Both the position numbers and the translations under genes were made by a program. The notes under the pieces are model-generated. The model did not search any database. It was given only the letters and a program-made list of their open reading frames with translations, and was not told the DNA's origin. A DNA stretch of 64,000 bases from an uncultured Bacillota bacterium (GTDB taxonomy: Bacteria > Bacillota > Clostridia > Christensenellales > UBA1242): positions 64,041 through 128,040 of the forward strand of contig CAMRTM010000002.1 of the NCBI GenBank assembly GCA_947053645.1, written 5' to 3'. This document shows, one piece after another, positions 25,937 through 64,000 of the stretch. The first letter of the stretch is position 1. Each line of letters starts with the position of its first letter.

Positions 25937-26058
25937 AAGTGCTTAAAGCGCTTTTTTTATTTCTTATGTTTCTTTTACTCTAAAAAAGCGTGAGAAATTT
26001 TGACAAAAAGTCTTAAAAAATTTGTTTTTTGAATGAAATAGTATATAATATAACTAAT

Positions 26059-28878
26059 ATGAAATATTTGAAAAATTTAAATTTAATATTTGTATGTGTT
26101 TTCACTCTCCTTATAGGAGCGCTACTTTTGTCTAATACTTTTGCGGGGGAGGGGATTTTAAAACCCGATAATCCACCAGAACAAATATTGCCGCCCGATG
26201 AGGGGATAGACGCAGCACTTACCGGTACTCTCGGTGCTTTTACAATGATAAGGGACCCAGAAACAAAAATATCAAGGTTGTCCACCTACCCATCTGGTTA
26301 TGGTATTAATATGAATAAAGATGGTAACACACTTCCCACTTCAAGTTGGACTTGGTATTCTAAGAGTTCAGGAGAGGCTTTGACGGCAAGTGGCGTCTTG
26401 ATGGTGCGTTGTCTTTGGCTAAAAGTGCCGAGAGGTTATCATTTTTATAAAGCCTATTTAAATCATGGTGGGAAATTAACTTCCTCAACCACATCGTCGA
26501 CATCGTTTAGTGATAGTGATTTGGCGGCTTTTGATGCCGTCATGCCTATGAGTAATCCAACAACCGGTATTTATAAAAGTGGAGATGGTTACTGGATAGG
26601 CGATAAAAGTGGTTGGTGGCAAGGGGTATCAGTTATTGAAAATAATTATTACAACATCTCATATGATTTAGGTGGTGGTAACTATGGCTCATATCACCCA
26701 AACAAGGCATATTATAATAAGCCTATAACAATATCTTTTCCAACTCGTACTGGGTATCAGTTTGACGGTTGGACAGCTACAGGAATTCACGCTAGTACAG
26801 CTATATATGGTATAAACGGCTCTACAAGTTTTCAATGGACAAACGGTAGCACAAAAGTAAAGTATAATGATTTTAATAGTTTGCGTTATGATAATGGGGG
26901 TACTGCCAGCTTAAAAGCTAATTGGACTGCGAACACTTACTCAATATCATACAATCTTAATGGTGGAACATGGACGCATTCATCCACTTCCTATCACCCA
27001 ACAAGTACAAGCTATAACACAGTAATCAACATTGAAAATCCAACTCGTGCCGGTTATACTTTTACGGGTTGGTCATCTGGAGGCTCAAATTTTTCTTCTT
27101 CAGCGGAGTGGGGAGATTCTTCTAGTTCGGTAACTCATTCTTGGAATGGGACACCGAAAGGGACTTATTTTAAAAATTTGTCTTCAACGAATAACGGTTC
27201 AGTCACTCTCACAGCCAATTGGACGCCGATTATGTATGAAGTTTGTGTAGATGAGGGGTGGGGAAGTGGCGGATGTATGGATGTAACATACGACGAAGTT
27301 TTTAGTCTTACTCTGCCGACTGCAACAGGCTATACCTTTGCAGGGTGGACAGCATCAGACGATTTCATTGGAACTGCTGCAAAGCATGGTACAACATCAA
27401 ATCCAACCACATCATGGACAAACGGCACAACAAAGGTAAAGTCCACATATTTTAAAAACTTGACAGTTATTGATGAGGGCTTAGTATCGCTAACGGCAAA
27501 TTGGACAGCCAATACCTATACGGTCACTTTAAATACGAATAAGGGTGGTGGCTCGACAACACCAACCGCAGGTACGGCGTCTGTTACTGCCACATATGAT
27601 AGTGTAATGCCAAGTATAACAATCCCAACAAGGGCGGGCTATACCTTTGCTGGTTTTTATGATACATCTGCCACTACAGGAGGTACACAATACTATACCT
27701 CTACAGGTGCGAGTGCTAGGGTTTGGGATAAAACAAGTAATACAACACTATATGCCCGCTGGACGGCAAATAAATATACCGTCACATTAAATAAAAATGG
27801 AGGTAGCGGCGGCAGTACAAGTGTAACAGCAACATTTGATGCAGCCATGCCAAATCTTACATCACTGCCAACCCGTGAAGGCTGGAAATTCCTCGGATAC
27901 TATGACGCTCAAACTGGCGGTAATCAATATTATCGCGAAGATGGCAGATGGGCATGGGTTTGGGATAAAACACAAAACGCAACCCTTTTCGCTCATTGGC
28001 AAGAAAAGACATGGATAGAAGATGATAGTTACTATTCCACCTCTCTTGCAGGGCAAGGAACGGAAACAAGTCCATATCTAATTACCTCAGCAAAAGACCT
28101 TGCCTATCTTGCAAAACAATCTCAAACAAATAATTTCAGTGGTGTATATTTCAAACAAATAGCGGATATAGACTTGGACGCACATTTATGGACTAGTATT
28201 TCAGATGTCAACGATTATATTAATTCTTTTGCGGGCATATATGACGGAGGACTATACTCAGTTAGAAATTTAAGAATGAATGGTGTAGCAAGTGGACATT
28301 ACGGATTATTCTATTGTGCGAAGAATGCAAAGATAAAAAATATAAATTTGCAAGATATAGAAATACAGAGTGGAAGTGCCTCAATAGGTACTGTAGTTGG
28401 AGTTGCAGAACTTACAACTATAGAAAATTGTACAGTTACAAGGGCGAAAATAACTAGTGGAAACCAATTAGGCGGAATAGCAGGTGTGGCTTTTGATAGT
28501 ACGATATCACAATGTATGGTGGAGGATTGTACTTTAACAGGTCAGCAATTTGTAGGGGGAATTTTAGGAGATAGTTTCACCTCCAATATAACTGATTGTA
28601 ATGTAATAGATGTTACCATCATATGCGATTCAGGTGATGTTGTATGTGATACTACCTCAGTACAAGGAAGTGTAACGATAAACTCTTCTTACGGCTTTGG
28701 CACAGTCAACGGAAGTGTACAGAAGGTTATGTACGGCGACGCTTCCGCATGGGGTAACTGGTCACTTGTAGAGGGCGTGAACGGCGGGCTCCCAATTCAA
28801 GGTGGGTTAAATCATATCGGTGGCTTTACAGAATCTAAGAAAGTATATGATCATTTAGTTGCTTGGAAAAATAGTTAA
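26059..28878 (+). CDS. secreted surface protein with Listeria-Bacteroides (Flg_new/InlB-B type) repeats and a GLUG-like C-terminal domain
   Basis: Signal peptide MKYLKNLNLIFVCVFTLLIGALLLSNTFAG begins at ATG 26059. About six repeats follow of the form ...Y.(I/V)(S/T).(N/D)..GG......(P)TR.GY.F.GW....(A/T)NWT.N.Y. The C-terminus contains GG(I/L)(A/L)G motifs. Confidence 0.8.
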   Translation: MKYLKNLNLIFVCVFTLLIGALLLSNTFAGEGILKPDNPPEQILPPDEGIDAALTGTLGAFTMIRDPETKISRLSTYPSGYGINMNKDGNTLPTSSWTWYSKSSGEALTASGVLMVRCLWLKVPRGYHFYKAYLNHGGKLTSSTTSSTSFSDSDLAAFDAVMPMSNPTTGIYKSGDGYWIGDKSGWWQGVSVIENNYYNISYDLGGGNYGSYHPNKAYYNKPITISFPTRTGYQFDGWTATGIHASTAIYGINGSTSFQWTNGSTKVKYNDFNSLRYDNGGTASLKANWTANTYSISYNLNGGTWTHSSTSYHPTSTSYNTVINIENPTRAGYTFTGWSSGGSNFSSSAEWGDSSSSVTHSWNGTPKGTYFKNLSSTNNGSVTLTANWTPIMYEVCVDEGWGSGGCMDVTYDEVFSLTLPTATGYTFAGWTASDDFIGTAAKHGTTSNPTTSWTNGTTKVKSTYFKNLTVIDEGLVSLTANWTANTYTVTLNTNKGGGSTTPTAGTASVTATYDSVMPSITIPTRAGYTFAGFYDTSATTGGTQYYTSTGASARVWDKTSNTTLYARWTANKYTVTLNKNGGSGGSTSVTATFDAAMPNLTSLPTREGWKFLGYYDAQTGGNQYYREDGRWAWVWDKTQNATLFAHWQEKTWIEDDSYYSTSLAGQGTETSPYLITSAKDLAYLAKQSQTNNFSGVYFKQIADIDLDAHLWTSISDVNDYINSFAGIYDGGLYSVRNLRMNGVASGHYGLFYCAKNAKIKNINLQDIEIQSGSASIGTVVGVAELTTIENCTVTRAKITSGNQLGGIAGVAFDSTISQCMVEDCTLTGQQFVGGILGDSFTSNITDCNVIDVTIICDSGDVVCDTTSVQGSVTINSSYGFGTVNGSVQKVMYGDASAWGNWSLVEGVNGGLPIQGGLNHIGGFTESKKVYDHLVAWKNS
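26641..28015 (+). repeat. about six tandem coding repeats (roughly 70-85 aa each) inside the surface protein
   Basis: Recurrent LKANWTANTYSISYNLNGG / LTANWTANTYTVTLNTNKGG / LYARWTANKYTVTLNKNGG / LFAHWQEKTW boundaries. Confidence 0.8.
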
Positions 28879-30172: not shown

Positions 30173-31705
30173 ATGTTAGCAAAGGTATCAAGTTTTGGAC
30201 TTAAAGGAATTGAAGGCTTTCCTGTAGATGTGGAAACAGACATTACAAATGGTCTTCCACATTTTGATGTTGTGGGACTTGCGGACACTGCAATCAAGGA
30301 ATCAAAAGAGCGTGTACGCTCCGCTATTAGAAACAGTGGATACGAATACCCTATTAAAAGAATTACAATAAATCTTGCTCCCGCTGATGTTAAGAAAGAG
30401 GGGGCTATCTATGACCTTGCAATGGCAGTGGCGATTATATCTCTTAATAAAGATAGCAAATTAAAGGCTATTGAAGATTATTGTTATATTGGAGAACTTT
30501 CACTAGATGGACAGGTAAAAAAGGTGAAAGGAGTGCTTCCGCTCCTTATATCTGCACGAAATTTTGGTTATAAGAGATTTATTATACCTTATGATAATGC
30601 GTTAGAGGCAAGTTTTATAGAAGGACTCGAGGTTTACCCAGTAAAATCTTTAATAGAGTGTATAGACTTTTTAGAAGGCAAAGAGACACTGGAAAAGGTG
30701 AAAATTGGTGACTATCAAAAAGAGATAAAAAGTCATGTGAACGGGCTAGACTTTTGTCATGTAAAGGGTCAAGCAAGGGCAAAGCGTGCACTAGAGATTG
30801 CTGCCGCTGGCGGACATAATGTGATTATGATTGGCCCTCCTGGAAGTGGTAAAAGTATGCTTGCAAAGTGCTTTCCTTCTATACTTCCTGATATGTCTTT
30901 TGAAGAGGCTTTGGAGGTGACAAAGATTCATTCTGTTTCAGGAGAACTTGATCTAAAGAAAGGAATTGTGTCTTGTAGACCTTTTAGAAGTCCGCACCAT
31001 ACAGCCTCTACCGTGAGTTTAACAGGTGGTGGAAATGGTAGTAAGCCGGGGGAAATCAGTCTTGCACATAATGGTGTGCTTTTTCTAGACGAAATGCCTG
31101 AATACTCCCGTCACACAATAGAAACCCTTCGTCAGCCTCTTGAAGACGGTGTTATTACCGTGGCAAGGGCAAATGCGACAATTTCATATCCAGCAAACTT
31201 CATGCTAATTGCAAGTATGAATCCTTGTCCATGTGGAAACTTTGGAAGTAAACTTAAAGAGTGTACCTGCACACCTAATCAAATACATAAATATCTTGCC
31301 AAACTTTCAGGGCCGATTATGGATAGAATAGATATTCACATCGAAGTTGACAATGTCACTTATGAGGATTTGAAAAGTAATAGTGAAGAAGAAAAATCTT
31401 AATCAATAAAAGAGAGGGTGGACATGGCGAGAGATATACAACTAAAAAGATTTAAAAATTCTAAAGTCTATTCAAATGCCAAGATGAGCGTGCCTCAGAC
31501 TAAAGAGTATTGCCGACTTGATAAATCAAGTGATGAAATACTTAGAATGGCATTTGAAAAATTAAAACTTTCAGCCCGTGCTCACGACAGAATTTTAAGG
31601 GTGGCAAGAACCATTGCGGACTTAGAGGGCGAAGAGAACATATTGCCACAACACATTGCGGAGGCGATAAGTTATCGCTCGCTTGACAGGAAATATTGGG
31701 GGTAA
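30173..31705 (+). pseudogene. comM: Mg-chelatase-like helicase ComM/YifB interrupted by one in-frame TAA (31400-31402)
   Basis: ORFs 30173-31402 and 31418-31705 are in the same frame. Reading through gives ...[23 protein letters not shown]..., collinear with intact YifB/ComM (..GESSA.IRERV..AR..Q..RF). Walker A GPPGSGKSMLA is present. Confidence 0.85.
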
Positions 31706-31706
31706 A

Positions 31707-32780
31707 ATGACAGACAAACAGGTTTTATTAATTTATTTATCTCAATTTAATTTATCGACTAAAAAAATTGATGAATTATTATCGCTGATGGAAGAGCCTT
31801 CCATTGATAATTTTGTTAAACTAAAAAATCTAAATCAATTATTTACTCCTGACATGGTTAATGAGATGATTGACAGGTCGCAAGACCGAAAAGTATCCAT
31901 GTATTTTTCAAGCCTTCGTGAAAAATGTATCACGGTGTTGACAAAAGGCGACGAGAATTATCCTAAAAAACTTGTAGAACTGCCAGAAGCCCCTTATCAT
32001 CTTTTTTGTAAGGGAGATTTGTCACTTTTTGAAGGGCGAAGTATAAGTATCGTTGGTTCAAGAACTCCAACTAATTATGGCAGGATTGTTACAGAACGAC
32101 TTGCAGGAGAACTTGCAAATAATGGTTTTACTATTGTAAGTGGGCTTGCCCATGGCATTGACAGTATAGCTCACAGAAAGGCTCTCGAAGTTGGAGGAAA
32201 AACAATAGCGGTTCTTGGCAATGGGTTTAACCATTTATACCCTGCCGATCATGCGGCTCTTGCGAGAGAGGTAGAGGAAAATGGACTTCTTATAAGTGAG
32301 TATTGCCCATCAGTGAAATCAACTAGGTTTACTTTTCCACATCGTAATCGTATTGTTGCGGGACTTGGTGACGGCGTTCTTATAACCGAGGCGAGTGCAA
32401 AAAGTGGTACTATGCACACAAAGGATTATGCTCTTGACTACGGCAGAACGGTGTTTGCTGTTCCGGGGAATATAACGAGTGAGAAAAGTGCACTTACAAA
32501 TGAACTAATTCGTTCTAATCAATGTGTATGTGTAACTAGTGTGGAAGATATCTATCACGAACTTGGAGTCGAAGCGAAAAAGCAGGATAAACGGGCGTTT
32601 GTTCAACTAGACTTAATTCAGCAAAAAATTGTAGATATTCTTAAAAATGGCGAAAAAGACATAGATTCTATATCGCTCGAATGCAATTTAAATATAAATT
32701 CCTTGAATAGTTATTTGACAATGATGGAAATTAGTGGAATAATAAAAAGGATGTCGGGCGGAGTTTATATGCTTGCCTAG
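31707..32780 (+). CDS. dprA: DNA-processing protein DprA
   Basis: IVGSRTPTNYG and GLAHGIDSIAHR Rossmann-like motifs. ATG at 31707, 1 nt after the comM stop. Confidence 0.9.
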   Translation: MTDKQVLLIYLSQFNLSTKKIDELLSLMEEPSIDNFVKLKNLNQLFTPDMVNEMIDRSQDRKVSMYFSSLREKCITVLTKGDENYPKKLVELPEAPYHLFCKGDLSLFEGRSISIVGSRTPTNYGRIVTERLAGELANNGFTIVSGLAHGIDSIAHRKALEVGGKTIAVLGNGFNHLYPADHAALAREVEENGLLISEYCPSVKSTRFTFPHRNRIVAGLGDGVLITEASAKSGTMHTKDYALDYGRTVFAVPGNITSEKSALTNELIRSNQCVCVTSVEDIYHELGVEAKKQDKRAFVQLDLIQQKIVDILKNGEKDIDSISLECNLNINSLNSYLTMMEISGIIKRMSGGVYMLA

Positions 32781-42103: not shown

Positions 42104-42384
42104 CTTCTACCGAGATAGATGGGGAGTTAGCGGTGCCCTGTAACCTACAACCCGCTTTAGTAGGGTCGAATGTTTGCCTCGGCTTATGATTGTCAAATAT
42201 GTGTAAAAGTTTTGCGTGATGAAGTCAAGGTCCTATGCAATTGAAACAGTCGAACCATGTCAGAGCCTGACGGCAGCATCATTAAGATTGCACTTCAATG
42301 TGCCATAGGGTAACTTTGGTGGAGCGTAAACCTTTTGAGGCAGTTGGTGACCATTTGTCAAAGCAAATTTCTCGGTAAGAAAAT
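42104..42384 (+). ncRNA. ffs: signal recognition particle RNA, long Bacillus type (scRNA, with Alu domain)
   Basis: ggggagttagcggtgccctgtaacctacaacccgctttagtagggtcgaat matches the B. subtilis scRNA Alu-domain segment GGGGAGGUAGCGGUGCCCUGUACCUGCAAUCCGCUCUAGCAGGGCCGAAU. gaaccatgtcag...ggcagcatcattaag matches domain IV GAACCAUGUCAGG...AAGCAGCAUUAAG. The 5' taccgaga pairs with the 3' tctcggta. The ends are approximate. Confidence 0.85.
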
Positions 42385-50139: not shown

Positions 50140-50346
50140 TTAATCTTCAAGACCGAGTAAATAATCAGTAGTGACACTAAAAAATTTAGCCAATACGATT
50201 AAATTGTCGCTACTAATATCAGTGGTGTTGTTTTCCCACTGACAAATTGCCGTAGTGCTTAATCCTGTAGCTTGGCTCAGTCCTTTCATAGATAACTTAG
50301 CATCTGTTCTTAATTCTTTTAATTTTTCTGCAAATTTTCTTTTCAT
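50140..50346 (-). CDS. XRE family transcriptional regulator
   Basis: LKELRTDAKLSMKGLSQATGLSTTAICQWEN. 68 aa. Confidence 0.85.
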   Translation of the reverse strand: MKRKFAEKLKELRTDAKLSMKGLSQATGLSTTAICQWENNTTDISSDNLIVLAKFFSVTTDYLLGLED

Positions 50347-50716: not shown

Positions 50717-50953
50717 TTAGCAGAAATTTTTTGCTATCATCATCCCTGCGAGGAAGTAAATGGCAGAGCAGGGAATTTGAATGTTAAAACTTCCGCACCT
50801 ACAAGGTGATTGCCATTGTGGCTGGCAAGGCGGAAATGGAATAGGTGGAAAGGGTGGGAAGAAGGGAGGATTTCCACATTCGCAGTTAGGGGGATTGTGA
50901 CAGCCACGAAGGTCGACAAAACATCCCTGTCTATAATCGCAATTATTACACAT
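50717..50953 (-). CDS. small Cys/Pro-rich protein with a hydrophobic C-terminus
   Basis: AAGGAGG Shine-Dalgarno before the second Met (MCNNCDYRQGC...). 12 Cys in 78 aa, a PPFFPPFPPIPFPPCQP tract and the C-terminal hydrophobic segment AIYFLAGMMIA. Confidence 0.55.
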   Translation of the reverse strand: MCNNCDYRQGCFVDLRGCHNPPNCECGNPPFFPPFPPIPFPPCQPQWQSPCRCGSFNIQIPCSAIYFLAGMMIAKNFC

Positions 50954-51002
50954 ATATGCCTCCTTTAGCATTTAATGGGGCTTCACTTAATAAATTAGTA
51001 TT

Positions 51003-53496: not shown

Positions 53497-53578
53497 TTGA
53501 ATTACCTCTACATTACCATTCTATAAATTTATTTCTCTTTTGTGACAATCTCACTTAAAAATTTTTTGGCACAAACTA

Positions 53579-53607
53579 TTGCAATGTCAAAAAGCGGGGT
53601 TTACAAT
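53579..53607 (+). promoter_or_regulatory. sigmaA-type promoter in front of the phage-like operon
   Basis: TTGCAA, 17-nt spacer, TACAAT. Lies 33 nt upstream of GTG 53640, which has an AAGGAGGG Shine-Dalgarno. Confidence 0.55.
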
Positions 53608-53639
53608 TTGGGTACAAGCCGGCGAAAAGGAGGGCAAAG

Positions 53640-53933
53640 GTGGATGATGAAGAACAAGAAATAAAAAAAGCACTACTAAAAAAAGCCCTAGGCTATATGG
53701 CTGACGAAGTCGTAGAAGAATATGTGCTGGGTGAGGATGGCGAGGAAAAACTTAGCAAAAGAAAGGTTACTAAAAAACATGTTAGTCCTGATATTTCAGC
53801 AATACGAGTTTTTCTAGAGCGATATGATACAGATCTTTCCAGCCAAATAAAAAATATGACTGATGAAGAACTTTATGAAGAAAAGTCGAAACTTCTAAAG
53901 TTATTAAAGGAGGAATATGATGGAAATTTATGA
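53640..53933 (+). CDS. short terminase-small-subunit-like protein
   Basis: 97 aa. ALGYMADEVVEEY....GEEKLSKRKVTKKHVSPDISAIRVFLERYD resembles the ..A.GY..EE.....G.......K...PPD..A..FWLKNR.. segment of Firmicutes phage TerS proteins. Confidence 0.45.
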   Translation: MDDEEQEIKKALLKKALGYMADEVVEEYVLGEDGEEKLSKRKVTKKHVSPDISAIRVFLERYDTDLSSQIKNMTDEELYEEKSKLLKLLKEEYDGNL

Positions 53934-54141
53934 GTGTAAACAGAAGGTTAAGTGCGACTTTGCAGGTTGCAAGAATGTTGCTGACTATTCTCTCGTCAAG
54001 GCTGGACTACTTAGGCGAGATATCTGCCTATGCAAGGAGTGCATGGGGGAAATGTACGATTGCATTTCTAAGGTGAGAGTGCCTAAGGCAATCGAAAGTC
54101 CATTCAAATTAAATAAGAGGTTAAAGAAAGATGAAAAGTAA
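53917..54141 (+). CDS. small four-Cys (zinc-ribbon-like) phage protein
   Basis: 74 aa. CDFAGC...CLCKEC. Overlaps both neighbouring ORFs. Confidence 0.5.
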   Translation: MMEIYECKQKVKCDFAGCKNVADYSLVKAGLLRRDICLCKECMGEMYDCISKVRVPKAIESPFKLNKRLKKDEK

Positions 54142-55984
54142 AGAAAATAAAATTGTTGAAGAAGTGCTTGAAGATTTTAAAGCAAGGTCACTTCAAAGAA
54201 AGCCATTTGAAATTTCATGGCAGATTAATATGAATTTCTTGATGGGAAATCAATATTGCAATATCGGATATGGTGGGGAACTTGAAGAAAGCGAGAAAGG
54301 TTATTTCTGGCAGGAGCGAGAAATTTTCAATCATATAGCACCAATTTACGATGTAAGATGTGCAAAATTATTTAAATCTAAACCACATTTTGTAGTTGTG
54401 CCTGCAACCAACGATGAAAGAGATAAGCAGGCTTCAAAAGTATCAAAAAAGATACTTGACTCGGTACAGTACAAACTAGGCATGGAGAATTTAATTGAAC
54501 AGGCTATCAAGTGGAGCGAGGTTTGTGGAACCGCTTTTTATAAAGTTACATGGAACAGCGAGTCTGGTCAACTTATTGCTAAGGATGAGAATGGTAAAGA
54601 TATTCGTGGCGGTGAAGTGGAGGTAGAGGTTGTAAGCCCATTTGAAATCTTTCCTGACTCGTCAACTTGCGAGGACATTAGCGAGTGTCAAAGCATTATC
54701 CATGCAAGAGTGCTTTCAGTAAGTCAAATTAAGGCAATGTATGGCATAGATGTTGTAGGCAAAACTATAAACTGCTATAGTCTTGACAATGTTGTTTCAG
54801 GGCTAGGCGGACTTGGTTACAATGCGACCGCTACAAAACTCATTGAAGGTGCGAAAAGCAATAGTGGACTTGTCCTTGAAAAATACATAAGACCTAATAC
54901 AGAATACCCAGATGGAAGATTAATAATAGTTGCAGGTGACAGACTTGTCTATGATGGCGCTCTTCCATATCTATGTGGAGAAGACAAATTAAGAGATTTC
55001 CCATTTGTAAGACAGATAAGTCTTGAAAAAACAGGCTGTTTCTGGGGTAGTAGTGTTATTGAAAGGCTTATTCCAGTACAAAGGGCATATAACGCAGTAA
55101 AAAACCGTAAGCATGAATTTATCAATCGCTTGACCCTTGGTGTACTTAGTGTGGAAGACGGTTCTGTCGACCTCGATAATCTTGAAGATGAAGGTCTTTG
55201 CCCTGGAAAAGTGCTTGTTTATAGGCAGGGAGCAAATGCACCAAGATATTTAAATGGTGAGGCTATTCCAGCGGGCTTTGCGGATGAGGAAGAAAAACTA
55301 CTTGATGAGTTTAATAGGGTAAGTGGGGTTAGTGATACACTCGGTACCGATTATATGAATTCAAACATGAGTGGTACTGCCCTTGAACTTATGATAGGGC
55401 AAGATGAAGTTAGACTTAATACAACCTCGCATAGTATTCGTGCTGCCGCACTAAATGTAATGAAAAAGGTGCTAAGACTTTACAAGCAATTTGCACTCTT
55501 CCCACGCCTTGCAAGAATAATTGGAGAAAATGGGCAAATTGAATCCTTTTATTTCTCGTCAAATGATATTTCAAGTGACGATGTTGTAATAGATACCCAA
55601 GGTGATGCAAGTGACAGTTTAACTACAAGGCGAGATATGATATTTAATCTTTTAAATGCAGGGGTGCTTTATGACGAGGAAGGTAAACTTACAAACAGAA
55701 TGAAGGGGAAGATTTTGGAAATGTTGGGGCTTGGACTATGGCAAAACGCTCAGGATGTTCAGGAACTTCATATCAAGAAAGCGGGAAATGAAAATCTTAA
55801 AATGCTTTCTGGTATCAATGTGAATGTAAGTGAGATTGACGATCATGATTTACATATCTCTGAACACATTGCCTTTATGCTTGGTAGTGATTATGAAAAT
55901 GCAAAACAAAAGAATGCAAAACTTGAATCTTTATATTTAAATCATATAAAAGAACATAAAAAATTACAAAAAATGGAGGATTAA
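54131..55984 (+). CDS. putative phage portal protein
   Basis: 617 aa with no Walker A, so it is not a terminase. Sits directly upstream of the scaffold and capsid genes. The N-terminal ...ISWQINMNFLMGNQY... is portal-like. Confidence 0.6.
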   Translation: MKSKENKIVEEVLEDFKARSLQRKPFEISWQINMNFLMGNQYCNIGYGGELEESEKGYFWQEREIFNHIAPIYDVRCAKLFKSKPHFVVVPATNDERDKQASKVSKKILDSVQYKLGMENLIEQAIKWSEVCGTAFYKVTWNSESGQLIAKDENGKDIRGGEVEVEVVSPFEIFPDSSTCEDISECQSIIHARVLSVSQIKAMYGIDVVGKTINCYSLDNVVSGLGGLGYNATATKLIEGAKSNSGLVLEKYIRPNTEYPDGRLIIVAGDRLVYDGALPYLCGEDKLRDFPFVRQISLEKTGCFWGSSVIERLIPVQRAYNAVKNRKHEFINRLTLGVLSVEDGSVDLDNLEDEGLCPGKVLVYRQGANAPRYLNGEAIPAGFADEEEKLLDEFNRVSGVSDTLGTDYMNSNMSGTALELMIGQDEVRLNTTSHSIRAAALNVMKKVLRLYKQFALFPRLARIIGENGQIESFYFSSNDISSDDVVIDTQGDASDSLTTRRDMIFNLLNAGVLYDEEGKLTNRMKGKILEMLGLGLWQNAQDVQELHIKKAGNENLKMLSGINVNVSEIDDHDLHISEHIAFMLGSDYENAKQKNAKLESLYLNHIKEHKKLQKMED

Positions 55985-55987
55985 AAA

Positions 55988-56602
55988 ATGGATGAAGATA
56001 GAGAACAACCAGTTATGGAACCGACAGATGTTTCGATTGAAACGAGTGAGGAAAGAGTTGTGAGTGAAACTGGCTCTCAAAATGACACCGCTCGACAAGC
56101 ACAGCCCGAGCAAGGAAATTACGGCAAGTTTAAAACGCTGGAAGCATTACTTTCTGCTTATGCGAATTTGGAAGCCGAATTTACTAAAAAGTGTCAAAAG
56201 CTAAGTCAATATGAGAAAGAAAAAACAGGGAAGGAAGGTAGTATCGACGAAAAACTTTCCCAGTTCCTTTCAAAAAATGAGGAGGCTTCAACCTATGCCG
56301 AGGAGGTTAAAGAAATTGTAAATTCTGAGGCAGAAACAGGGGAGTTTGATTCTGCGCTCGCGAAGATAGTACTAGACCGCGTAGCACAGAAAAAGGTGGA
56401 CGACCCTATGGTAAATCGTTACATACTTTCTAGTGACGAATTGAAAAACAAGGTAATTGAAAATTATCTTAACGCTCTTAAGGAGCAAAAACCACCAGTT
56501 GTAATTTCTTCTCAAAAAGGTGAGAGGGTGTCAAGCACCATGCCTGACACTCCAACCTCACTATCTGAGGCGAAAAAAATGGTGGAAAAAATGTTTAGTT
56601 AA
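55988..56602 (+). CDS. putative capsid scaffolding protein
   Basis: 204 aa, acidic N-terminus, helical or coiled-coil character. Position between portal and capsid. Confidence 0.55.
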   Translation: MDEDREQPVMEPTDVSIETSEERVVSETGSQNDTARQAQPEQGNYGKFKTLEALLSAYANLEAEFTKKCQKLSQYEKEKTGKEGSIDEKLSQFLSKNEEASTYAEEVKEIVNSEAETGEFDSALAKIVLDRVAQKKVDDPMVNRYILSSDELKNKVIENYLNALKEQKPPVVISSQKGERVSSTMPDTPTSLSEAKKMVEKMFS

Positions 56603-56616
56603 AAAAGGAGAAAATT

Positions 56617-57813
56617 ATGGTAACATTACAAACAGCCGAAAACGCTTTAAAGTCTGTTTATCTTGGAGTGGTTGCTGACCAAATCAACATTTCAACAAGC
56701 CCACTTTTTGCCAAGATTAAACGCTCTTCAAAGGATATTTACGGCAAAGAAATTGTAAAAGCCGCTCCATTTGGAGTAAACGGCGGCTTTGGTGCTGGCG
56801 GAGAAACAGATCCTCTTCCAGTTGCTGGAAATAACAATTATGCTCAGTTTAGGGCAACACTTAAAAACCTTTATGGTAAATTTGAAATCAGTGATAAGGC
56901 AGTACGCGCATCTGCAAGCAATGCAGGGGCATTTGTAAATCTTCTTGCTGATGAAATGGAAACTCTTGTGAAATCTTGTAGTTTCAACCTTAACAGAATG
57001 CTTTACGGTGCAGGAGATGGCATTGTTGCCACTGTAAATAGTGTTGATACAACAAAAAATGAAGTTACCTGCGACAGCGTAAGAAACATAGTTGAAGGAA
57101 TGATGCTTGATGTTTATGCGTCTTCTGGAAAATCAAACACCACTCCAGTGAGAGTAGTTGCAGTTGACAGAGTAGCAAACAAGTTTAAGTATGAAGGCAC
57201 ACATACTATCGCCGCAACAGATAAATTATATATCCAAGGTTCAAAAGATAAGGAACTTACAGGTATAGAGGCACTTTTCACAGGCGACACACTTTATGGT
57301 CTTAACAAAAGTGATTTTTACTGGCTTAATTCTTTCCAAGATAAAACCGAAGGCGAAATTTCTGATATAAGAATTCAATCTGCTATTGATTTCCTTGAAG
57401 AGAATGCAGATTCAAAAATCAACTTTATTGCAACTTCTAGAAAGATTAGAAGAGCATACCAAGAATATCTTAACATTTATAGAAAGAATGTTGACATTGT
57501 AGACCTTGGAAATGGAATTAAAACTATCACACACAATGGAATACCAGTATACGCTGACAGATTCGTAAAAGAGGGAGATATGTATTTACTAAATACTGAC
57601 GACTTCACTTTATACGAACTTGGCGACTGGAGCTGGATAGAGGACGAAGCGGGCAGAGTAATTAGACAAAATGCAGGCTATCCTACATACAGCGCAACCC
57701 TTGTAAAATATGGCGAACTTATTTGTGACAAACCATATGGACAAGGCAAGATATCAAACATATCTGCATCTGTAAATGACCCATATAAAACATATATACC
57801 AGCAGGCGTATAA
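56617..57813 (+). CDS. putative major capsid protein
   Basis: 398 aa, strong AAGGAG Shine-Dalgarno, position after the scaffold, followed by a hairpin (aaaagcaaaagtgatttcacttttgctttt). Confidence 0.55.
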   Translation: MVTLQTAENALKSVYLGVVADQINISTSPLFAKIKRSSKDIYGKEIVKAAPFGVNGGFGAGGETDPLPVAGNNNYAQFRATLKNLYGKFEISDKAVRASASNAGAFVNLLADEMETLVKSCSFNLNRMLYGAGDGIVATVNSVDTTKNEVTCDSVRNIVEGMMLDVYASSGKSNTTPVRVVAVDRVANKFKYEGTHTIAATDKLYIQGSKDKELTGIEALFTGDTLYGLNKSDFYWLNSFQDKTEGEISDIRIQSAIDFLEENADSKINFIATSRKIRRAYQEYLNIYRKNVDIVDLGNGIKTITHNGIPVYADRFVKEGDMYLLNTDDFTLYELGDWSWIEDEAGRVIRQNAGYPTYSATLVKYGELICDKPYGQGKISNISASVNDPYKTYIPAGV

Positions 57814-57857
57814 AAAGCAAAAGTGATTTCACTTTTGCTTTTATTAAGGGAGGAAAA

Positions 57858-58175
57858 ATGAAAGATTACATATTAATTGAAAATGACCCATTATTCATTA
57901 CCGACAGACTTAGGGAAATAGATAAGACCTACTTTGTGCTTTATAATTTAAGGCTTAAACGATATGAGGTGCATTCAAGCGGACAGGTTGGGGGAAGTTA
58001 TTGTTTCAGCCTGCCCTTTTCCTCCCTTGACGAGCGAATGGTAACCGAGTGCCTTCGCACAAGGCGAGAGAATATAGACAAAGTCATCAAACAACTTGAT
58101 GAAGAAAATGAAAAATTAGAAAAGCGTCTTGTGCGAGAGGCGATAGAAAAATATGTGGAGGTGAACATATGTTAG
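57858..58175 (+). CDS. phage-island hypothetical protein
   Basis: 105-aa ORF with GGGAGG Shine-Dalgarno. Confidence 0.5.
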   Translation: MKDYILIENDPLFITDRLREIDKTYFVLYNLRLKRYEVHSSGQVGGSYCFSLPFSSLDERMVTECLRTRRENIDKVIKQLDEENEKLEKRLVREAIEKYVEVNIC

Positions 58176-58732
58176 CATATGAAGTGATAAAAGCTGCGTG
58201 TCAGTTTTCTGATAATGACGCCCTTGCTGATAAGATAATGTCGGGGGAGGATTTTGATACCAGTTTTACGGAGGAAGAAAAGTTGACACTTACAAGATAT
58301 TTGGAGTGCTTAAACTATCTACAAGAAGAGGTAGCAAGTGAATTCAAACCACTTAAAACCACAGAAAAATTCAAAACCGAAAATTTTAAGATAGATTTTT
58401 CAGTTTTTAAAAAAACACCGCTTCAAATTCTTTCTGTTAAGGACTTAAAGGGGGGAAAGGTAAAGTTTAAAGTTTTTCCTACCTACCTTATGGCTTTTGC
58501 AAACGAGGTGGAGGTCACCTATGGTGCCACCCCCGAAAAGCTCGACTTTGATAGCCCAATAGAGGTGGATTTGCCACAAAGAGTGCTAGGCTATGGCGTG
58601 GCACGGGAATACTATCTCAGGCAGGGACTGACAGAAGATGCTGAAATCTGGGAAAGTCGATTTAAGGGAAGTTTAAAACTCATTCTAAGAAAGCGGGCAG
58701 GTACCACCTTGCCTAGGAGGAGGTGGCTGTAA
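58169..58732 (+). CDS. phage-island hypothetical protein (connector/adaptor-sized)
   Basis: 187-aa ORF that overlaps its neighbours by 7 and 10 nt. Confidence 0.5.
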   Translation: MLAYEVIKAACQFSDNDALADKIMSGEDFDTSFTEEEKLTLTRYLECLNYLQEEVASEFKPLKTTEKFKTENFKIDFSVFKKTPLQILSVKDLKGGKVKFKVFPTYLMAFANEVEVTYGATPEKLDFDSPIEVDLPQRVLGYGVAREYYLRQGLTEDAEIWESRFKGSLKLILRKRAGTTLPRRRWL

Positions 58733-60204
58733 TGTTTAATGAAAATAAACTTAAAGTCACGAAAAAAGATAAAAAAACTTTTAAATTTGATTTATTTAAT
58801 AAGTGCCCTATAGGTGATAGGAACGAGGAGGAGATGACTTACAGCGAGCCGACGCTATGCTATAACTTCAAGGTGACAAAATGTGGTCTTGAAAATGGTT
58901 ATGGTGTAAGGGACTTGCAAATGCCGCTTTCCACTACCGACCTTGAAACCGAGGCGGTAGTACCAATTAATGGAAATGAAGTAAGAAGAATGTGGAGTTT
59001 TACTTGGGAAGATAATAATGCAAATGTTCTAAAATACTATTTGTTTTACTTTAACGAAAATCATCAAATTAATTATGAAAATATGTTTTGGACAAGGCCG
59101 ATAAGAATTTCCTTTGACACTGAGTACACATCAACGCCGGTTGGTCTTAGTTACCGTATAAATGGTTATGACTATATGATATTTTCCACACAGGACGGCG
59201 ATGTTTATGTGTTCGGTGCGGGTTATGATAAATATCTTGAAGGCGCACCAAAACTGATTTCCTGCTGTACCCACGATGATAGACTTTATGCCCTAACAAG
59301 TAAAGCAAGACATAGCCTTGTCTACTCTACCAACCTTAATATTATGGAGTGGAAAGATGACACCACTCAGCACCTTGAATTTAGTGACGAGCGTGGAAAT
59401 CTAACCAAAGTGATGTCTTTTAATGATTATCTTTATGTATTCCGCGAGTTTGGTATAACGAGGGTGTCCACCTATTCGACTTCCGGCGAGTTTAGTATAA
59501 GGCATATGTTTCAGTCGACAAGTTACATTCATACCGGCTCGATAGCCTCAAACGGAGAAGATGTCTACTTTCTTACCACCGAGGGCTTTTACAGTTTCGA
59601 TGGAAACTCTGTAAAAGAGGTGGCACTTGACTGCTTCCCGCAAATCGAGGATTTGTCAAAGTGTAGTGCGGAGTGCTTTGAGAATAAGTATTATCTTGCC
59701 TGCCGCATGAAGTTTGATAAGCGAAGTGAGGGCTGTGAAAGCGGCGAGTATATAAACAATGCGGTACTAATCTATGACACCAAAAAAGAAGAGGTGGAAA
59801 TATTAAGGGGAGTTGATGTAAACCAACTTCTTGCACTCAATAACCCACTTAAAAGCAAACTTGTTATGTGCTTTAATGGGGATATGGTGGGACATGTCGG
59901 CGAACTTTCGTGTGAAGGCACAAGTTTTGGACAGAGCCAGCATAAAGTATGGCAAAACTCCTTTTCAGACTTTGACCTTGGCGAAGGGGTGAAAAAGGTG
60001 GAGCATTTTGAGATAAAAACCTCAGCACCTTGCAAAGTTACCCTTGAAAGCGAAAAAGAAAATAGGGTATATAATCTTAAAGGCAGCGAGAGGGCTAAAC
60101 TTGTAAAAAGCGGTCTAATCGGAAAGCGTGTAAGAGTAACTATCGAGAGTGATAGTGACAAGATAAAAATTTCATCTTTTAAATTAATTTTGAGCGTGCA
60201 ATGA
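58723..60204 (+). CDS. phage-island large structural protein (beta-rich; possible tail-tube, nozzle or propeller-like)
   Basis: 493-aa ORF. Repeated aromatic-Gly beta-strand patterns (DYMIFSTQDGDVYVFG, DRLYALTS, DYLYVFREFG, DVYFLTTEGFYSFDG). Confidence 0.5.
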   Translation: MAVMFNENKLKVTKKDKKTFKFDLFNKCPIGDRNEEEMTYSEPTLCYNFKVTKCGLENGYGVRDLQMPLSTTDLETEAVVPINGNEVRRMWSFTWEDNNANVLKYYLFYFNENHQINYENMFWTRPIRISFDTEYTSTPVGLSYRINGYDYMIFSTQDGDVYVFGAGYDKYLEGAPKLISCCTHDDRLYALTSKARHSLVYSTNLNIMEWKDDTTQHLEFSDERGNLTKVMSFNDYLYVFREFGITRVSTYSTSGEFSIRHMFQSTSYIHTGSIASNGEDVYFLTTEGFYSFDGNSVKEVALDCFPQIEDLSKCSAECFENKYYLACRMKFDKRSEGCESGEYINNAVLIYDTKKEEVEILRGVDVNQLLALNNPLKSKLVMCFNGDMVGHVGELSCEGTSFGQSQHKVWQNSFSDFDLGEGVKKVEHFEIKTSAPCKVTLESEKENRVYNLKGSERAKLVKSGLIGKRVRVTIESDSDKIKISSFKLILSVQ

Positions 60205-60321
60205 TAGTTTTCAATATGAATTACATAAAGTTCGTCAATAGAAAAAAGTTAATTGAAGAGGAGAAACTTATGGAAGATATATTCAAAAAATCGGAGAAAA
60301 CACAACTGGCGAAAAAGCAAA

Positions 60322-60555
60322 ATGGGAATTTGGAATGAAATTATAAGTGTGGTTGTAAGTAACGGAATATTTGCCACACTTTTTGTATTCTTGTTTTTTT
60401 ATCAATTAAAAGATAGTTCAAAGCGTGAAAAAGCCTACCAAGAAACGATAGAAAATCTTACCGAGCATCTGCAGATAATCGAGGATGTAAGGGGAGAGGT
60501 AACCGAACTTAAAACCCATATACTTAAGGAGGAAGAAAGTGAAAGAGAAAATTAA
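60322..60555 (+). CDS. BhlA/UviB family holin-like peptide
   Basis: MGIWNEIISVVVSNGIFATLFVFLFFYQLKDSSKREKAYQETIENLTEHLQIIEDV follows the BhlA/UviB pattern (TM segment, then LK..SKRE..YQE.I..L). The start at ATG 60322 was chosen by family length. Confidence 0.7.
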   Translation: MGIWNEIISVVVSNGIFATLFVFLFFYQLKDSSKREKAYQETIENLTEHLQIIEDVRGEVTELKTHILKEEESEREN

Positions 60556-60805
60556 ATCTTATGGCTTTTGGACGGCTCTTGCTGGTGCTATGGTTGTGCT
60601 TGTAGACGCACTTGGCGATCTGTTTGGATTCAGCGTAAGTGATGAGATAGTGTCAGGCGTCGTAATGGCGGTTGCAGGCGTGCTTGTAGTACTTGGAGTT
60701 GTCACTATGCCAAAAAGCGAAAAGAAAGAGGAAAACGCGGAAAAAGAAAATTTTATCGAAGACAATAAAACTGACAAAGAAGATAAAGAAAAAGAGGGGG
60801 AATAA
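60539..60805 (+). CDS. phage holin (two-TM, small)
   Basis: GTG start after AAGGAGG. KSYGFWTALAGAMVVLVDALGDLFG plus a second TM segment, then a charged Lys/Glu tail. Confidence 0.65.
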   Translation: MKEKIKSYGFWTALAGAMVVLVDALGDLFGFSVSDEIVSGVVMAVAGVLVVLGVVTMPKSEKKEENAEKENFIEDNKTDKEDKEKEGE

Positions 60806-60819
60806 CCCCTCTTTTTTTT
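60793..60819 (+). terminator. terminator of the phage-like operon
   Basis: agagggg-gaataa-cccctct followed by T8. Confidence 0.85.
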
Positions 60820-60944: not shown

Positions 60945-62909
60945 TTATTGAACTACTCCAAGTCCCGTATAGAACTTGTAATTTGTTGTATAGTCGCCAA
61001 TAACTTTAAGCACTTCAAAGTTGATTTCAAGATAGTCGCAGTCTTCTGACGCAGTAAATGCTTTAGGGTTTAGCCTGCCGTAACTATAGTAGTTGTTTGT
61101 TGCCTCGTTGGACGCTTCCACAAGTTCGTAATAGTTTTTGGCAATGCCAGTACCAGTAAGAGGGTGTGGCTGACTGCGTGACACCGTGCCGTCATATTTC
61201 ATATCAGGGTGGTGGAGTTGTCCGCCAGCCATTTCAGTAGTAAATGGATTTATCGTGTAGCCCTTTCTTGTTTCCTTATCAAGCCCGAACAGCATCATTG
61301 TGCTGCCCTCAGCCCCATAATCATGTGGGCCGTCTTTTACTCTTATCGTTTCGGTTGCCACCGTCTTACGCTGTCCGCCTTTGTTGTAGATATTGATGTA
61401 AACCTTGATGTCGATTGCGGAGTTTGTAACCTTGTCATCTCCGTCATCGCCAGCATCATACTTGAAGTGTAGGGAGAGGTTGTCAACCGTAAACGCATCT
61501 CTAAACATAAGCACCACGCTTTGGTATTCCATTGCTTCTATGTTTTTGAATGGGTCATCACTTGCCACCATAAAGTTTGTGCCGTAATAGTCTTTTATAT
61601 ATGAGGCTGGGAATCTGTCAGTAATGCCGGGGTTTCCACCTTCCTCACTGCCGATGTGAACTTGGGTACTTACCGCCTCTACAATATTTGCCACAACATT
61701 GGTGTAATCGCGTTTTACATTTATAGGTGCATTTTCTTTAATCTTTACTAAATCTTGTACAGTTTCACCGGCCTCATTTTTATATTCGTAAATTGCATAT
61801 TCATTTTGTGCCACATAGTCAGCCTCTATAGCATTTTTACCGATTACATTGTTTAATATATAATTTACAAGTTTTGCCTGCTTTGTCTCGGAGAAACCTA
61901 CATATGTTCCAATCTTATTAAAAATATTTTTAATGTATGTAAGTGCTTCATCTACTTCCAGTTCCTCTTGCCCTTGCTTAATTTTTACTTGTGGGGTGCC
62001 GTCTGTTTGTAATGTCACTTTCACTTCCCCAGGGTTTATATCAAGTGTAATGCAATATATTACATATTCAAGTGCCTTCACATAATTACTATAACCTTTG
62101 GTATAAAAGCCCGTTGTTTCGTCTTTTTCTGCTTGTTGCGATTCTGTGCCGAGGTACATTAACCGATATTCCTTTTGTCGTTGATAATAAAAAACTTCAT
62201 TATTACTAAAGTATAGATTTTCACCATCTATCTTTCCGTATGTATTCGCTAATACAGTATTTGTTGTATTCTCTACAGGAGGGTTATTAGTTCCATTATA
62301 GTATATAGATGCTATGGGCTGTACAAAACTTCCAAAAGTCCAGTTCCAAGAATTATCAGTATCAACTACTATTGTTACTAATTCTTTTTCATCAAAATCG
62401 CCAGTCACCTCATCAAAATATTTTCCATTAAGTTCTGTTTTTCCTGTTGTATCGGTGCCGCTTGGTATTTCTACATATTTTTTAGTATATTGCTTTTCTT
62501 CATATAAGTTATATCTTATAGTATCGTAAAAATATTTTGTTTCTGCATTTTCATTGAGATATTCTTTTCTTTCTGTTTCATCCAATGAAAAAGTGCCGAA
62601 TGTTCTTTCCAGATCATCTAAAATACGCCAAGCATATTGGCCATAGTATTCTTGGTTTCCAGTTCCTACCGTACCTTCTCCGTCATAATCATAATTTTCA
62701 GGACGGTATAACACTTTTGCACCATGTAGGGGAACGGGCATATTGTTTTTAAGTTGCTCTTGAAGCTGTTCATATGTAATTTCGCCGCGGTTAAATTTAT
62801 CAATAAGGTCGTCATGCCAGCCTGAGTCATTACCAAAGCAGCCCACGCTTAAAAGTGCGAAGGAAGCGATAAAGATAAAACTCATAATCCTAGCAAATAT
62901 TTTTCTCAT
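60945..62909 (-). CDS. large lipoprotein of unknown function
   Basis: 654 aa. Signal peptide with lipobox (FALLSVGC). No recognisable catalytic motif. Confidence 0.75.
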   Translation of the reverse strand: MRKIFARIMSFIFIASFALLSVGCFGNDSGWHDDLIDKFNRGEITYEQLQEQLKNNMPVPLHGAKVLYRPENYDYDGEGTVGTGNQEYYGQYAWRILDDLERTFGTFSLDETERKEYLNENAETKYFYDTIRYNLYEEKQYTKKYVEIPSGTDTTGKTELNGKYFDEVTGDFDEKELVTIVVDTDNSWNWTFGSFVQPIASIYYNGTNNPPVENTTNTVLANTYGKIDGENLYFSNNEVFYYQRQKEYRLMYLGTESQQAEKDETTGFYTKGYSNYVKALEYVIYCITLDINPGEVKVTLQTDGTPQVKIKQGQEELEVDEALTYIKNIFNKIGTYVGFSETKQAKLVNYILNNVIGKNAIEADYVAQNEYAIYEYKNEAGETVQDLVKIKENAPINVKRDYTNVVANIVEAVSTQVHIGSEEGGNPGITDRFPASYIKDYYGTNFMVASDDPFKNIEAMEYQSVVLMFRDAFTVDNLSLHFKYDAGDDGDDKVTNSAIDIKVYINIYNKGGQRKTVATETIRVKDGPHDYGAEGSTMMLFGLDKETRKGYTINPFTTEMAGGQLHHPDMKYDGTVSRSQPHPLTGTGIAKNYYELVEASNEATNNYYSYGRLNPKAFTASEDCDYLEINFEVLKVIGDYTTNYKFYTGLGVVQ

Positions 62910-63255: not shown

Positions 63256-64000
63256 CTAGTAGTTTTCTGGCTCTTCTATATTCCTCTTCAAATCAGTGTA
63301 TCTATTTCTTATTATCGCGTACATTTGTCCTTCATGTTCAAATACATCAAGTACTTCGTTGCTATCATTCTCTTTAAACATTTCGCCAAGTAGCAAAACA
63401 TTCTTCCCAAATTCAAAAGTTTCAGTTGTTGGGGTGGTGTAATCTTTTCCAACAGTGGCACTTTCTGCAAGTATTGACTGCCCAATAGGGTCGGTGCGGT
63501 CACCGTCGCTTCGTGCCTTTGTTTTTATAATGGTTATACCATTATCATTAATGACATAAATTTTAATCTCATTTGTTCCACCTAAACCAGTAACAATTCC
63601 ACCAGATACATTTGTTAAACTTATAAACTGAGGATTTGTTTCTGCTAATGTAGGATTTAATTTTGCAAGAACTTGTTTATCTCTGGTATCTTGGCTTGCA
63701 CTAGGGATATCTATTATATTCGTACCATTATATTTGCTTGTTGGCACGAATGTTCCATTTTTTAAGTTATCTTCACTCATAGGTGTTTTCATTGGTATGC
63801 GAATTAATCGGTACCCATTGTACTCAATGGTGGAACGAGCATCATTATATTTTACAAATGCGTATACATAATATTTACCATCCTCTTCTTTGTAATCAAT
63901 GGCAGAATATTCTTCAATTTCCACGCCAGTGCCAATTACATTTTGTAATGTTGTGCTAACCGCTTTAGTCACTGCAGCGACAATTTCCTCTTTGGTCATA
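63256..64000 (-). CDS. hypothetical protein, possibly truncated by the window edge
   Basis: The ORF is open to the window end. The ATG at 63999-63997 may be the true start or an internal Met. Beta-rich Thr/Asn/Gly composition. Confidence 0.5.
   Translation of the reverse strand, partial: MTKEEIVAAVTKAVSTTLQNVIGTGVEIEEYSAIDYKEEDGKYYVYAFVKYNDARSTIEYNGYRLIRIPMKTPMSEDNLKNGTFVPTSKYNGTNIIDIPSASQDTRDKQVLAKLNPTLAETNPQFISLTNVSGGIVTGLGGTNEIKIYVINDNGITIIKTKARSDGDRTDPIGQSILAESATVGKDYTTPTTETFEFGKNVLLLGEMFKENDSNEVLDVFEHEGQMYAIIRNRYTDLKRNIEEPENY

Follow-up and report, generated by a model that had tools for sequence, protein, structure and literature searches.

Near the right end of the 64-kb window analyzed here (64,000 nucleotides of contig CAMRTM010000002.1 from an uncultured bacterium of the order Christensenellales), a single co-directional block extends on the + strand from a promoter to a terminator (53567-60816). 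It is probably the operon for head, short tail, and lysis functions in a split-locus element that derives from a podovirus, has been domesticated and passed on vertically, and resembles gene transfer agents (GTAs), that is, a "viriform" of the Christensenellales. That the block is a functional, domesticated, and vertically inherited particle module is well supported. The anatomy of the genes, together with one paper (PMC12946183, Nat Commun 2026), suggests that the particles package and transfer host DNA, and the large terminase subunit (TerL) of this genome is presumably encoded elsewhere in the genome. Packaging in the Christensenellales was observed in that 2026 study without the genes, and the operon, combined with a module of TerL and a sigma-like gene found in its relatives, represents candidate machinery for the whole order; outside the Proteobacteria, where very few GTA-like elements are on record, it would be the second lineage of podovirus type. 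Literature searches retrieved no description of the Christensenellales cluster itself. The Christensenellales are among the most heritable and health-associated gut bacteria and, to our knowledge, almost nothing is known about gene exchange in this order.

Gene content of the operon

As a preliminary description of the window had reported, ten open reading frames (ORFs) follow one another on the + strand (53640-60805). An eleventh ORF of 45 aa is present in addition, and 7 of the 10 junctions overlap by 4-17 nt, while the remaining three are gaps of 3, 14, and 44 nt. The identities proposed in that description for the TerS-like (small terminase subunit), portal, capsid, BhlA, and holin genes were borne out by matches to protein families. 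Specifically, the first gene (g1, 53640..53933) encodes an acidic protein of 97 aa that matches phrog_309 "terminase small subunit", weakly in the case of the window protein (E=8e-6) and in 28 of 28 orthologues (best E=1.9e-7), the match being confined to profile positions ~195-243 of 319. Judging from this alignment, g1 appears to be a short TerS-like protein without the DNA-binding part of the family profile. A PDB profile search gave no informative match for g1, which in distant relatives lies directly downstream of TerL, and its ratio of nonsynonymous to synonymous divergence (dN/dS) is 0.03 between the window and L006, the locus of a 93%-identical relative. The basic 74-aa protein encoded by g2 (53917..54141) carries four cysteines (C13, C18, C39, and C42) that are invariant across 29 orthologues, and it is probably a zinc ribbon; searches of Pfam, PHROGs, and the PDB returned no match, and its dN/dS is 0.02-0.07 in five of the six pairs with unsaturated synonymous divergence (dS) and 0.37 in the sixth (L069-L083). 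The third gene (g3, 54131..55984) encodes the 617-aa portal protein, which is of the P22/SU10 type, as is typical of a P22-like podovirus module, and matches PF16510 P22_portal (E=3.9e-19, above the gathering score), PF23899 (E=1.4e-8), and phrog_156 (E=7e-33); it is ~24% identical to annotated portals of Arthrobacter and Microbacterium phages.

Between the portal and capsid genes sits g4 (55988..56602), whose 204-aa product is a probable scaffolding protein in view of this position and of its acidic composition (isoelectric point 4.7). Its match to phrog_1052 "head assembly" is weak (E=0.03), and its dN/dS of 0.17-0.33 is the maximum of the block in most pairs compared. The 398-aa major capsid protein (g5, 56617..57813) matches phrog_14242 (E=1.2e-50), is 27-29% identical to annotated actinophage capsid proteins over 93-96% of its length, and has more than 5,400 homologues, many of them on contigs of 100-600 kb. 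Between the window and L006, dS is 0.31 in the scaffold gene and 0.55 in the capsid gene vs 0.9-2.0 in the other operon genes, with a value of 0.34 in the short BhlA gene; the low dS of the scaffold and capsid genes (55988-57813) suggests a constraint on codon usage from high expression.

The capsid gene is followed by g6 (57858..58175), which encodes a conserved 105-aa protein that is found in about 80 loci and is possibly involved in head completion; 7 of its 36 orthologues match phrog_17018, a family without assigned function, and a profile search gave no PDB match. The 187-aa product of g7 (58169..58732) is the probable head-to-tail adaptor. Its gene lies immediately 5' of the nozzle gene, as do the adaptor genes of P22 (gp4) and T7 (gp11), and the top match of its profile among the 26 proteins of Microbacterium phage Shocker is gp32, a "tail tube protein" whose gene adjoins gp33, although the match is weak (E=1e-3). 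PDB and PHROGs profile searches, including PHROG scans of all g6 and g7 orthologues, gave no informative match for g7, and its single-sequence structure model was unusable (pLDDT 44). The large beta-rich ORF g8 (58723..60204, 493 aa, likely start ATG 58732), which the preliminary description had seen as part of a podovirus-like head-tail order, is identified by its modelled structure as a tail nozzle or tail hub of the gp10/gp12 fold. The AlphaFold2 model built from a 45-sequence alignment is all-beta (pLDDT 88.5, pTM 0.88), and its best Foldseek match is the tail of Pseudomonas phage Pa223 (9nwi_Y, E=1.7e-19, TM 0.74/0.72), with further matches to VP1, GP4, SU10, P22 gp10 (8eap_D, TM 0.59/0.61), Sf6 gp8, and T7 gp12. 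The TM scores are 0.56-0.74 (E=1e-11 to 1e-19) against Pa223, VP1, GP4, P22 gp10, and Sf6 and 0.42-0.49 (E ~1e-10 to 1e-12) against the longer T7 gp12 chains, and many of the matches in a viral structure library are named "P22 Gp10". No tail needle or plug, tailspikes, or fibres are encoded in the block.

The 45-aa ORF (60201..60338) occupies the position of the DUF7934 gene of deeper relatives; it is called as a gene on the JGI contig and conserved in the closest relatives only, and its reality is uncertain. The lysis pair consists of the BhlA-family holin g9 (60322..60555; PF10960, E=4.9e-18), whose ATG is at 60322 within a longest ORF beginning at TTG 60253, and of the 88-aa phage holin g10 (60539..60805; PF04531, E=2.5e-5; phrog_297, E=2e-10). 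The operon ends, as previously described, at a strong terminator, a real hairpin (60789..60816) with an 11-bp stem and T runs on both strands, which make it a bidirectional intrinsic terminator.

These assignments outline a possible mechanism. The conserved promoter would drive the portal, scaffold, and capsid genes, leading to a protease-free P22-style procapsid, which a terminase composed of g1 and of the TerL from another locus would fill with DNA. Since the DNA-binding portion of the family profile is missing from g1, the packaged DNA would probably come from the host and be taken up irrespective of its sequence. The adaptor g7 and the nozzle g8 would then close the portal with a stubby tail, and the BhlA and holin pair would free the particles by lysing a fraction of the cells.

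Conservation and selection across the Christensenellales

A scan of GTDB with one genome per species retrieved at least 512 species with a relative of the capsid protein, and the best 80 were examined in detail. These are labelled as Clostridia, Eubacteriales, Christensenella, or Christensenellaceae metagenome-assembled genomes, and in 80 of the 80 species genomes all ten genes are present, intact, in the same order, and of conserved ORF length, mostly at the same chromosomal site. The left flank, composed of a gene for a 334-aa membrane protein and of divergent ATP-binding cassette (ABC) permease and ATPase genes, is common to the window and 40 loci. The named relatives are Christensenella, Christensenellaceae, Candidatus Borkfalkia, Candidatus Coproplasma, and "Subdoligranulum sp. 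CAG:314", and the GC content of the relatives ranges from 27 to 64%; the family therefore spans the order Christensenellales. The high-GC relatives were also considered as Faecalibacterium, which would have made them FpGTA, the GTA of Faecalibacterium prausnitzii, itself; they are instead Candidatus Coproplasma, Candidatus Borkfalkia, CAG:314, and Christensenellaceae. One and the same capsid protein sequence can recur on up to 1000 or more contigs, the longest of which reach 600 kb.

The dN/dS values (Nei-Gojobori, several species pairs) are about 0.03-0.33 for every gene, including g1 and g2, and denote purifying selection. The family combines two features of GTAs, namely vertical inheritance across the host clade under purifying selection and phage structural and packaging genes that reside in the chromosome without replication, integration, and lysogeny modules. 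The nearest cultured phages are at most 30% identical. Moreover, IMG/VR contains about 50 short fragments of the cluster with a TerL identity of 56-69%, whereas all other matches, except a single one at 45%, are at or below 33%; in view of this fall in identity the family is a discrete lineage well apart from free phages.

Terminase and associated genes in relatives

The preliminary description had considered the block as possibly self-contained, which does not hold for the family, as its relatives reveal a TerL, a sigma-like gene, a 283-aa membrane protein, a variable surface protein, and a DUF7934 protein as further components. The accompanying idea of a retained particle module that needs a packaging ATPase encoded elsewhere agrees with the relatives, in which the family TerL is either linked to the head genes or separate from them, and presumably extends to the window genome. 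An upstream TerL was recorded for 8 head loci and also for L085 and L184. Specifically, L069 encodes a 479-aa TerL (PF03237 and PF17289) 3.6 kb before g1, and TerL is likewise found upstream of the head genes in L048, L070, L071, L073, L083, L085, and L184, with an invariant Walker A motif (GGNRSGKT) throughout the family. The linked order is sigma-like gene, convergent gene for the 283-aa membrane-anchored protein, TerL, gene for a variable protein of 760-1000 aa, and g1, and the contiguous cluster measures about 14 kb (L069 and L085). The sigma-like protein has 181-187 aa and a Sigma70_r4_2 domain, while the variable protein, of ~800 aa, carries a signal peptide or membrane anchor and GLUG, leucine-rich (LRR), or PARCEL repeats. 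In the TerL-linked clades a DUF7934 gene (PF25588) lies between the nozzle and BhlA genes, and there is none in the clade of the window. The sigma-like and 283-aa genes are convergent with 3' ends that overlap by 4 nt (L087 8507-9923; L085 8527-9923), and more than 50 loci retain the pair ahead of TerL; no family match was obtained for the 283-aa protein.

In other genomes (L087, L177, and L181), the module of sigma-like gene, 283-aa gene, TerL, and ~827-aa gene forms a separate locus between groESL and hrcA-grpE-dnaK that has no head genes nearby (within 10 kb), and the stand-alone TerL is intact with a dN/dS of 0.03-0.11. Conversely, none of 40 ABC-flanked head loci has a TerL in the 6-10 kb upstream, and DUF7934 is missing from every one of them. 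Several ABC-linked head loci begin with dnaK or dnaJ (L002, L013, L027, and L030), and in these genomes the TerL module and the head block are probably ~15 kb apart. The contigs P0152/P0059 and P0219 were evaluated as a possible junction of the two halves and rejected, as the contigs differ and the overlaps of the dnaK ends are between species, at 75-81% identity. Considering also the still more distant members in which TerL directly abuts g1, the family documents a stepwise fragmentation, from TerL adjacent to the head genes, to TerL separated from them by an inserted gene, to TerL at another locus. In L074 (3230-17591), a head block that includes DUF7934 and holins lies immediately upstream of hrcA-grpE-dnaK, which is the position of the TerL module in L087 and L177 and hints at how the cluster split.

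The dnaK operon of the window lies 34 kb away from the head block and is not preceded by a TerL gene. The absence of TerL, protease, integrase, and lysin genes from the 64 kb, already noted in the preliminary description, was confirmed by tblastn with the TerL of the family and by Pfam scans of 20 large ORFs, which yielded only housekeeping proteins or proteins without a match. The TerL of this genome must therefore lie outside the 64 kb or have been lost. TerL-profile scans of JGI metagenomes and IMG/VR found no contig from sample 3300006217.

A promoter motif upstream of g1 and of the sigma-like gene

The promoter of the operon (53567..53607, + strand) is composed of a TGGCAC-N5 upstream element, a -35 element TTGCAA, a 17-nt spacer, and a -10 element TACAAT. 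The preliminary description had rated TTGCAA-17-TACAAT (53579-53607) as a good promoter, a rating that the motif alone does not sustain, since it matches 9 of the 12 consensus positions and the region shows no excess of matches of this quality (25 observed vs 20.1 +/- 3.8 expected); its position and architecture, on the other hand, are conserved across species. The arrangement that recurs upstream of g1 consists of an A/T tract, TG[GT]CA[GC]N, five bases, TTGaa, 17-18 nt, and TATAAT. The motif TG[GT]CA[GC]N-N5-TTG occurs only 170 times in 5.2 Mb of sequence; 54 of 132 loci have it no more than 200 nt ahead of g1, and at 18 loci it precedes the sigma-like gene. Because the same motif is found before both genes, a common control element appears to serve the head operon and the TerL-side module. 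An interpretation of TGGCAC-N5-TTGCA as a sigma-54 promoter was rejected on three counts: the spacing exceeds that of such promoters by one base, TTGAA takes the place of TTGC in most orthologues, and there is a TATAAT box 17 nt further on. Small helix-turn-helix (HTH) genes occur near the cluster in some relatives, for instance just upstream of the sigma-like gene of L085.

Comparison with known phages and phage-derived elements

The T7-like gene order suggested in the preliminary description was not upheld, the arrangement being closer to P22 and to Shocker. Shocker is the closest cultured phage, with 24-30% identity in TerL, portal, and capsid, and its genes run from TerL through two small genes, portal, scaffold, and capsid to the later "tail tube" (gp32) and the 514-aa gp33. 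The order of the family (TerL, two small genes, portal, scaffold, coat, adaptor, and nozzle) is that of P22 and of the Shocker/Adat-type podoviruses, and P22 also shares the type of portal, the gp10-fold nozzle, and the lack of a prohead protease. Unlike these phages, to which identity is at most 30%, the element has no ejection proteins, needle, tailspike, replication, or lysogeny genes and is fixed in the host chromosome.

Among GTAs, a close likeness by description is with FpGTA, whose 10.5 kb operon encodes a TerS without DNA-binding domain, TerL, portal, scaffold, capsid, and short-tail proteins and whose second operon encodes fibre, holin, and endolysin (PMC12946183). Its particles are ~40 nm, podovirus-like, and tail-less-looking, and contain about 8.5 kb of random host DNA (PMC12946183). 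The two systems have in common a residence in the chromosome of gut Clostridia, conservation across species, a distribution over two loci, a holin, and the same set of structural and packaging genes, from a TerS without DNA-binding domain to short-tail proteins. They differ in that every named relative here belongs to the Christensenellales, that the TerS-like gene is downstream of TerL or fully separate from it, that the split runs between TerL and the head genes rather than between the head and the fibre/lysis genes, and that no endolysin or fibre was found. In the same study, Nanopore sequencing of faecal virus-like particles showed GTA-type chromosomal packaging for two Christensenellales taxa, with fragment sizes peaking at 4.1 kb in HGM11616 and at 6.3 kb in QANA01, and linked no genes to it (PMC12946183). 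The contiguous cluster of ~14 kb is more than twice as long as these fragments, as expected for a GTA.

RcGTA of the Alphaproteobacteria (established knowledge as cited in PMC12946183) likewise combines an order-wide, vertically inherited structural cluster under purifying selection with accessory genes at other loci, a TerS without DNA-binding domain, and a cluster larger than the DNA likely packaged. In contrast to the present element, which is podovirus-like, protease-free, and provided with a P22 gp10-fold nozzle, RcGTA is siphovirus-like, with a prohead protease, a tape measure, and a long tail, and the structural genes are not homologous beyond shared folds. Where RcGTA has CtrA/GafA, the element has a sigma-like gene and a shared promoter element. 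Lastly, PBSX of Bacillus is similarly a conserved, non-infectious, phage-derived particle locus of Firmicutes whose BhlA/XhlA-type release cassette is built around a holin, but it is a contiguous, myovirus-like element of ~28 kb with its own terminase, tail, and lysin.

Alternative explanations

Several observations weigh against a GTA-like role of the operon. TerL, the sigma-like gene, the gene for the 283-aa protein, and DUF7934 all lack a counterpart in the 64-kb window by tblastn. No single contig was found on which a stand-alone TerL module and an ABC-linked head block occur together, and they are linked through the shared context of the dnaK operon. The assignment of g7 as adaptor, from its position and the Shocker match, is weak. 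Furthermore, there is no obvious candidate for a cytoplasmic tail fibre or receptor-binding protein, the ~800-aa proteins of the relatives carrying signal peptides or membrane anchors, and no endolysin was found at any locus, not even among recurrent genes that follow the holin (70 loci).

Alternatively, the locus could produce PBSX-like defective particles that are released by lysis, or serve another non-transfer role, such as competition, killing, signalling, or DNA release, and host DNA might be packaged incidentally. All the evidence from conservation and anatomy fits this possibility equally, the lysis pair includes a BhlA-family protein of the kind filed in PHROGs under bacteriocin production or immunity (phrog_2429), and no receptor-binding fibre was identified in the block. 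PBSX and tailocins, however, kill via contractile or long tails, and a podovirus nozzle has no obvious killing mechanism. In addition, TerS and TerL are kept under purifying selection, which argues for the importance of DNA loading, and GTA-type packaged DNA has been reported for the order (PMC12946183); a non-transfer role is possible yet rather unlikely. It is more doubtful still that the terminase module was lost in the ABC-flanked clade of the window, which also lacks DUF7934. The operon would then be permanently uncoupled from the terminase, from the DUF7934 protein in the needle position, and from the surface-protein gene, and its nozzle-capped, portal-bearing capsids, unfilled by a motor of their own, would be empty or otherwise loaded nanocontainers; if true, a phage capsid would here have taken on a role unrelated to DNA movement. 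The 40 ABC-flanked loci without upstream TerL and DUF7934 and the lack of a contig that directly joins both halves of the system are compatible with such a loss, but g1 and the portal are under strong purifying selection in this very clade (dN/dS 0.03-0.04, window vs L006), and intact, conserved stand-alone TerL modules lie beside the dnaK operon, which flanks several ABC-linked head loci.

The local absence of terminase, lysin, integrase, and fibres could also be what remains of a podovirus after deletion of all but a stump of head genes, as the preliminary description had contemplated. Such decay would be expected to leave frameshifts, truncations, a patchy distribution, and relaxed selection, none of which was found, since the ten ORFs are intact and of conserved length in about 80 species. 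Because dN/dS is 0.03-0.33 in every gene, a decaying remnant is set aside as highly improbable, the more so given the conserved chromosomal position and promoter and the housekeeping genes on both flanks. The rest of a normal prophage is not found past the right end of the window either; L006 continues there with a 512-aa protein, ComEC, and HolA, and hence no prophage is hidden just beyond the 64 kb. A capsid-forming satellite of the phage-inducible chromosomal island (PICI) type, which would make its own capsids and borrow the tails and packaging of a helper phage, had been put forward as well and would explain a head-rich gene set locally devoid of a terminase and a long tail. The probability left to it is equally slight, because the chromosomal site is fixed and there is no integrase or replication module. 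Indeed, integrase, replication, repressor, and lysin genes are absent from the window, from the flanks of the relatives, and from L006 beyond the right end. Att-like boundaries, a regulatory module, and horizontal mobility were not found either, and the identical insertion context in many species points to vertical inheritance; moreover, the block encodes its own nozzle, and the family has its own TerL.

Genomic surroundings of the operon

Both neighbours named in the preliminary description were found, namely an ABC ATPase and permease on the left and a convergent gene for a 654-aa lipoprotein on the right. The other 53 kb of the window are ordinary core genome, with spoIVA, fakA, tsaD, a U32 peptidase gene, hrcA-grpE-dnaK-dnaJ, comM, dprA, topA, trmFO, hslU, iscS, ileS, pepF, and the signal recognition particle (SRP) RNA. 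The latter, a bacterial large SRP RNA (42110-42375, + strand; RF01854, 159 bits), is the sole Rfam match in the window. The earlier statement that no cI/Cro pair is present stands apart from a minor exception, a single small XRE/Cro-type HTH gene 3 kb upstream of the operon (50140-50346, - strand). Between this gene and that of the 334-aa membrane protein lies an 84-aa ORF that is very rich in cysteine and proline (50717-50971, - strand; CNNCDY...CECGNPPFFPPFPPIPFPPCQPQW...).

Directly downstream of the holin, two genes without Pfam match (60945-62909 and 63256-63999, both on the - strand) form a pair that is also present in L020 (14661-18162, + strand). Its order is a protein of ~400-510 aa followed by a lipoprotein of ~650-730 aa, usually with comEC-holA next. 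The lipoprotein was counted at 38 loci and the partner protein at 29, and the pair can be oriented with or against the operon; it is a possible component of the system, for instance as a surface receptor.

Elsewhere in the window, a sigma-70 family gene with regions 2 and 4 (24612-25250, + strand) is located 0.8 kb upstream of the gene for a 949-aa surface protein (26029-28878, + strand) with Listeria-Bacteroides repeats and a GLUG-like segment, the latter with a weak resemblance (E=5e-9) to the N-terminal portion of the ~760-aa protein encoded after TerL in relatives. The 949-aa protein was rejected as the counterpart of the ~800-aa protein of the relatives, as only the GLUG-like segment is in common, and the pair may be either a distant trace of the sigma/surface-protein module or coincidental. 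Lastly, comM and dprA are present in the window (30173-32780), and comEC is a recurrent downstream neighbour of the operon, in 35 loci (for instance L002, 14607-16697). Recipients of RcGTA need competence functions of the comM/dprA/comEC kind to take up GTA DNA; the presence of such genes near the operon may simply reflect a conserved order of the core genome.

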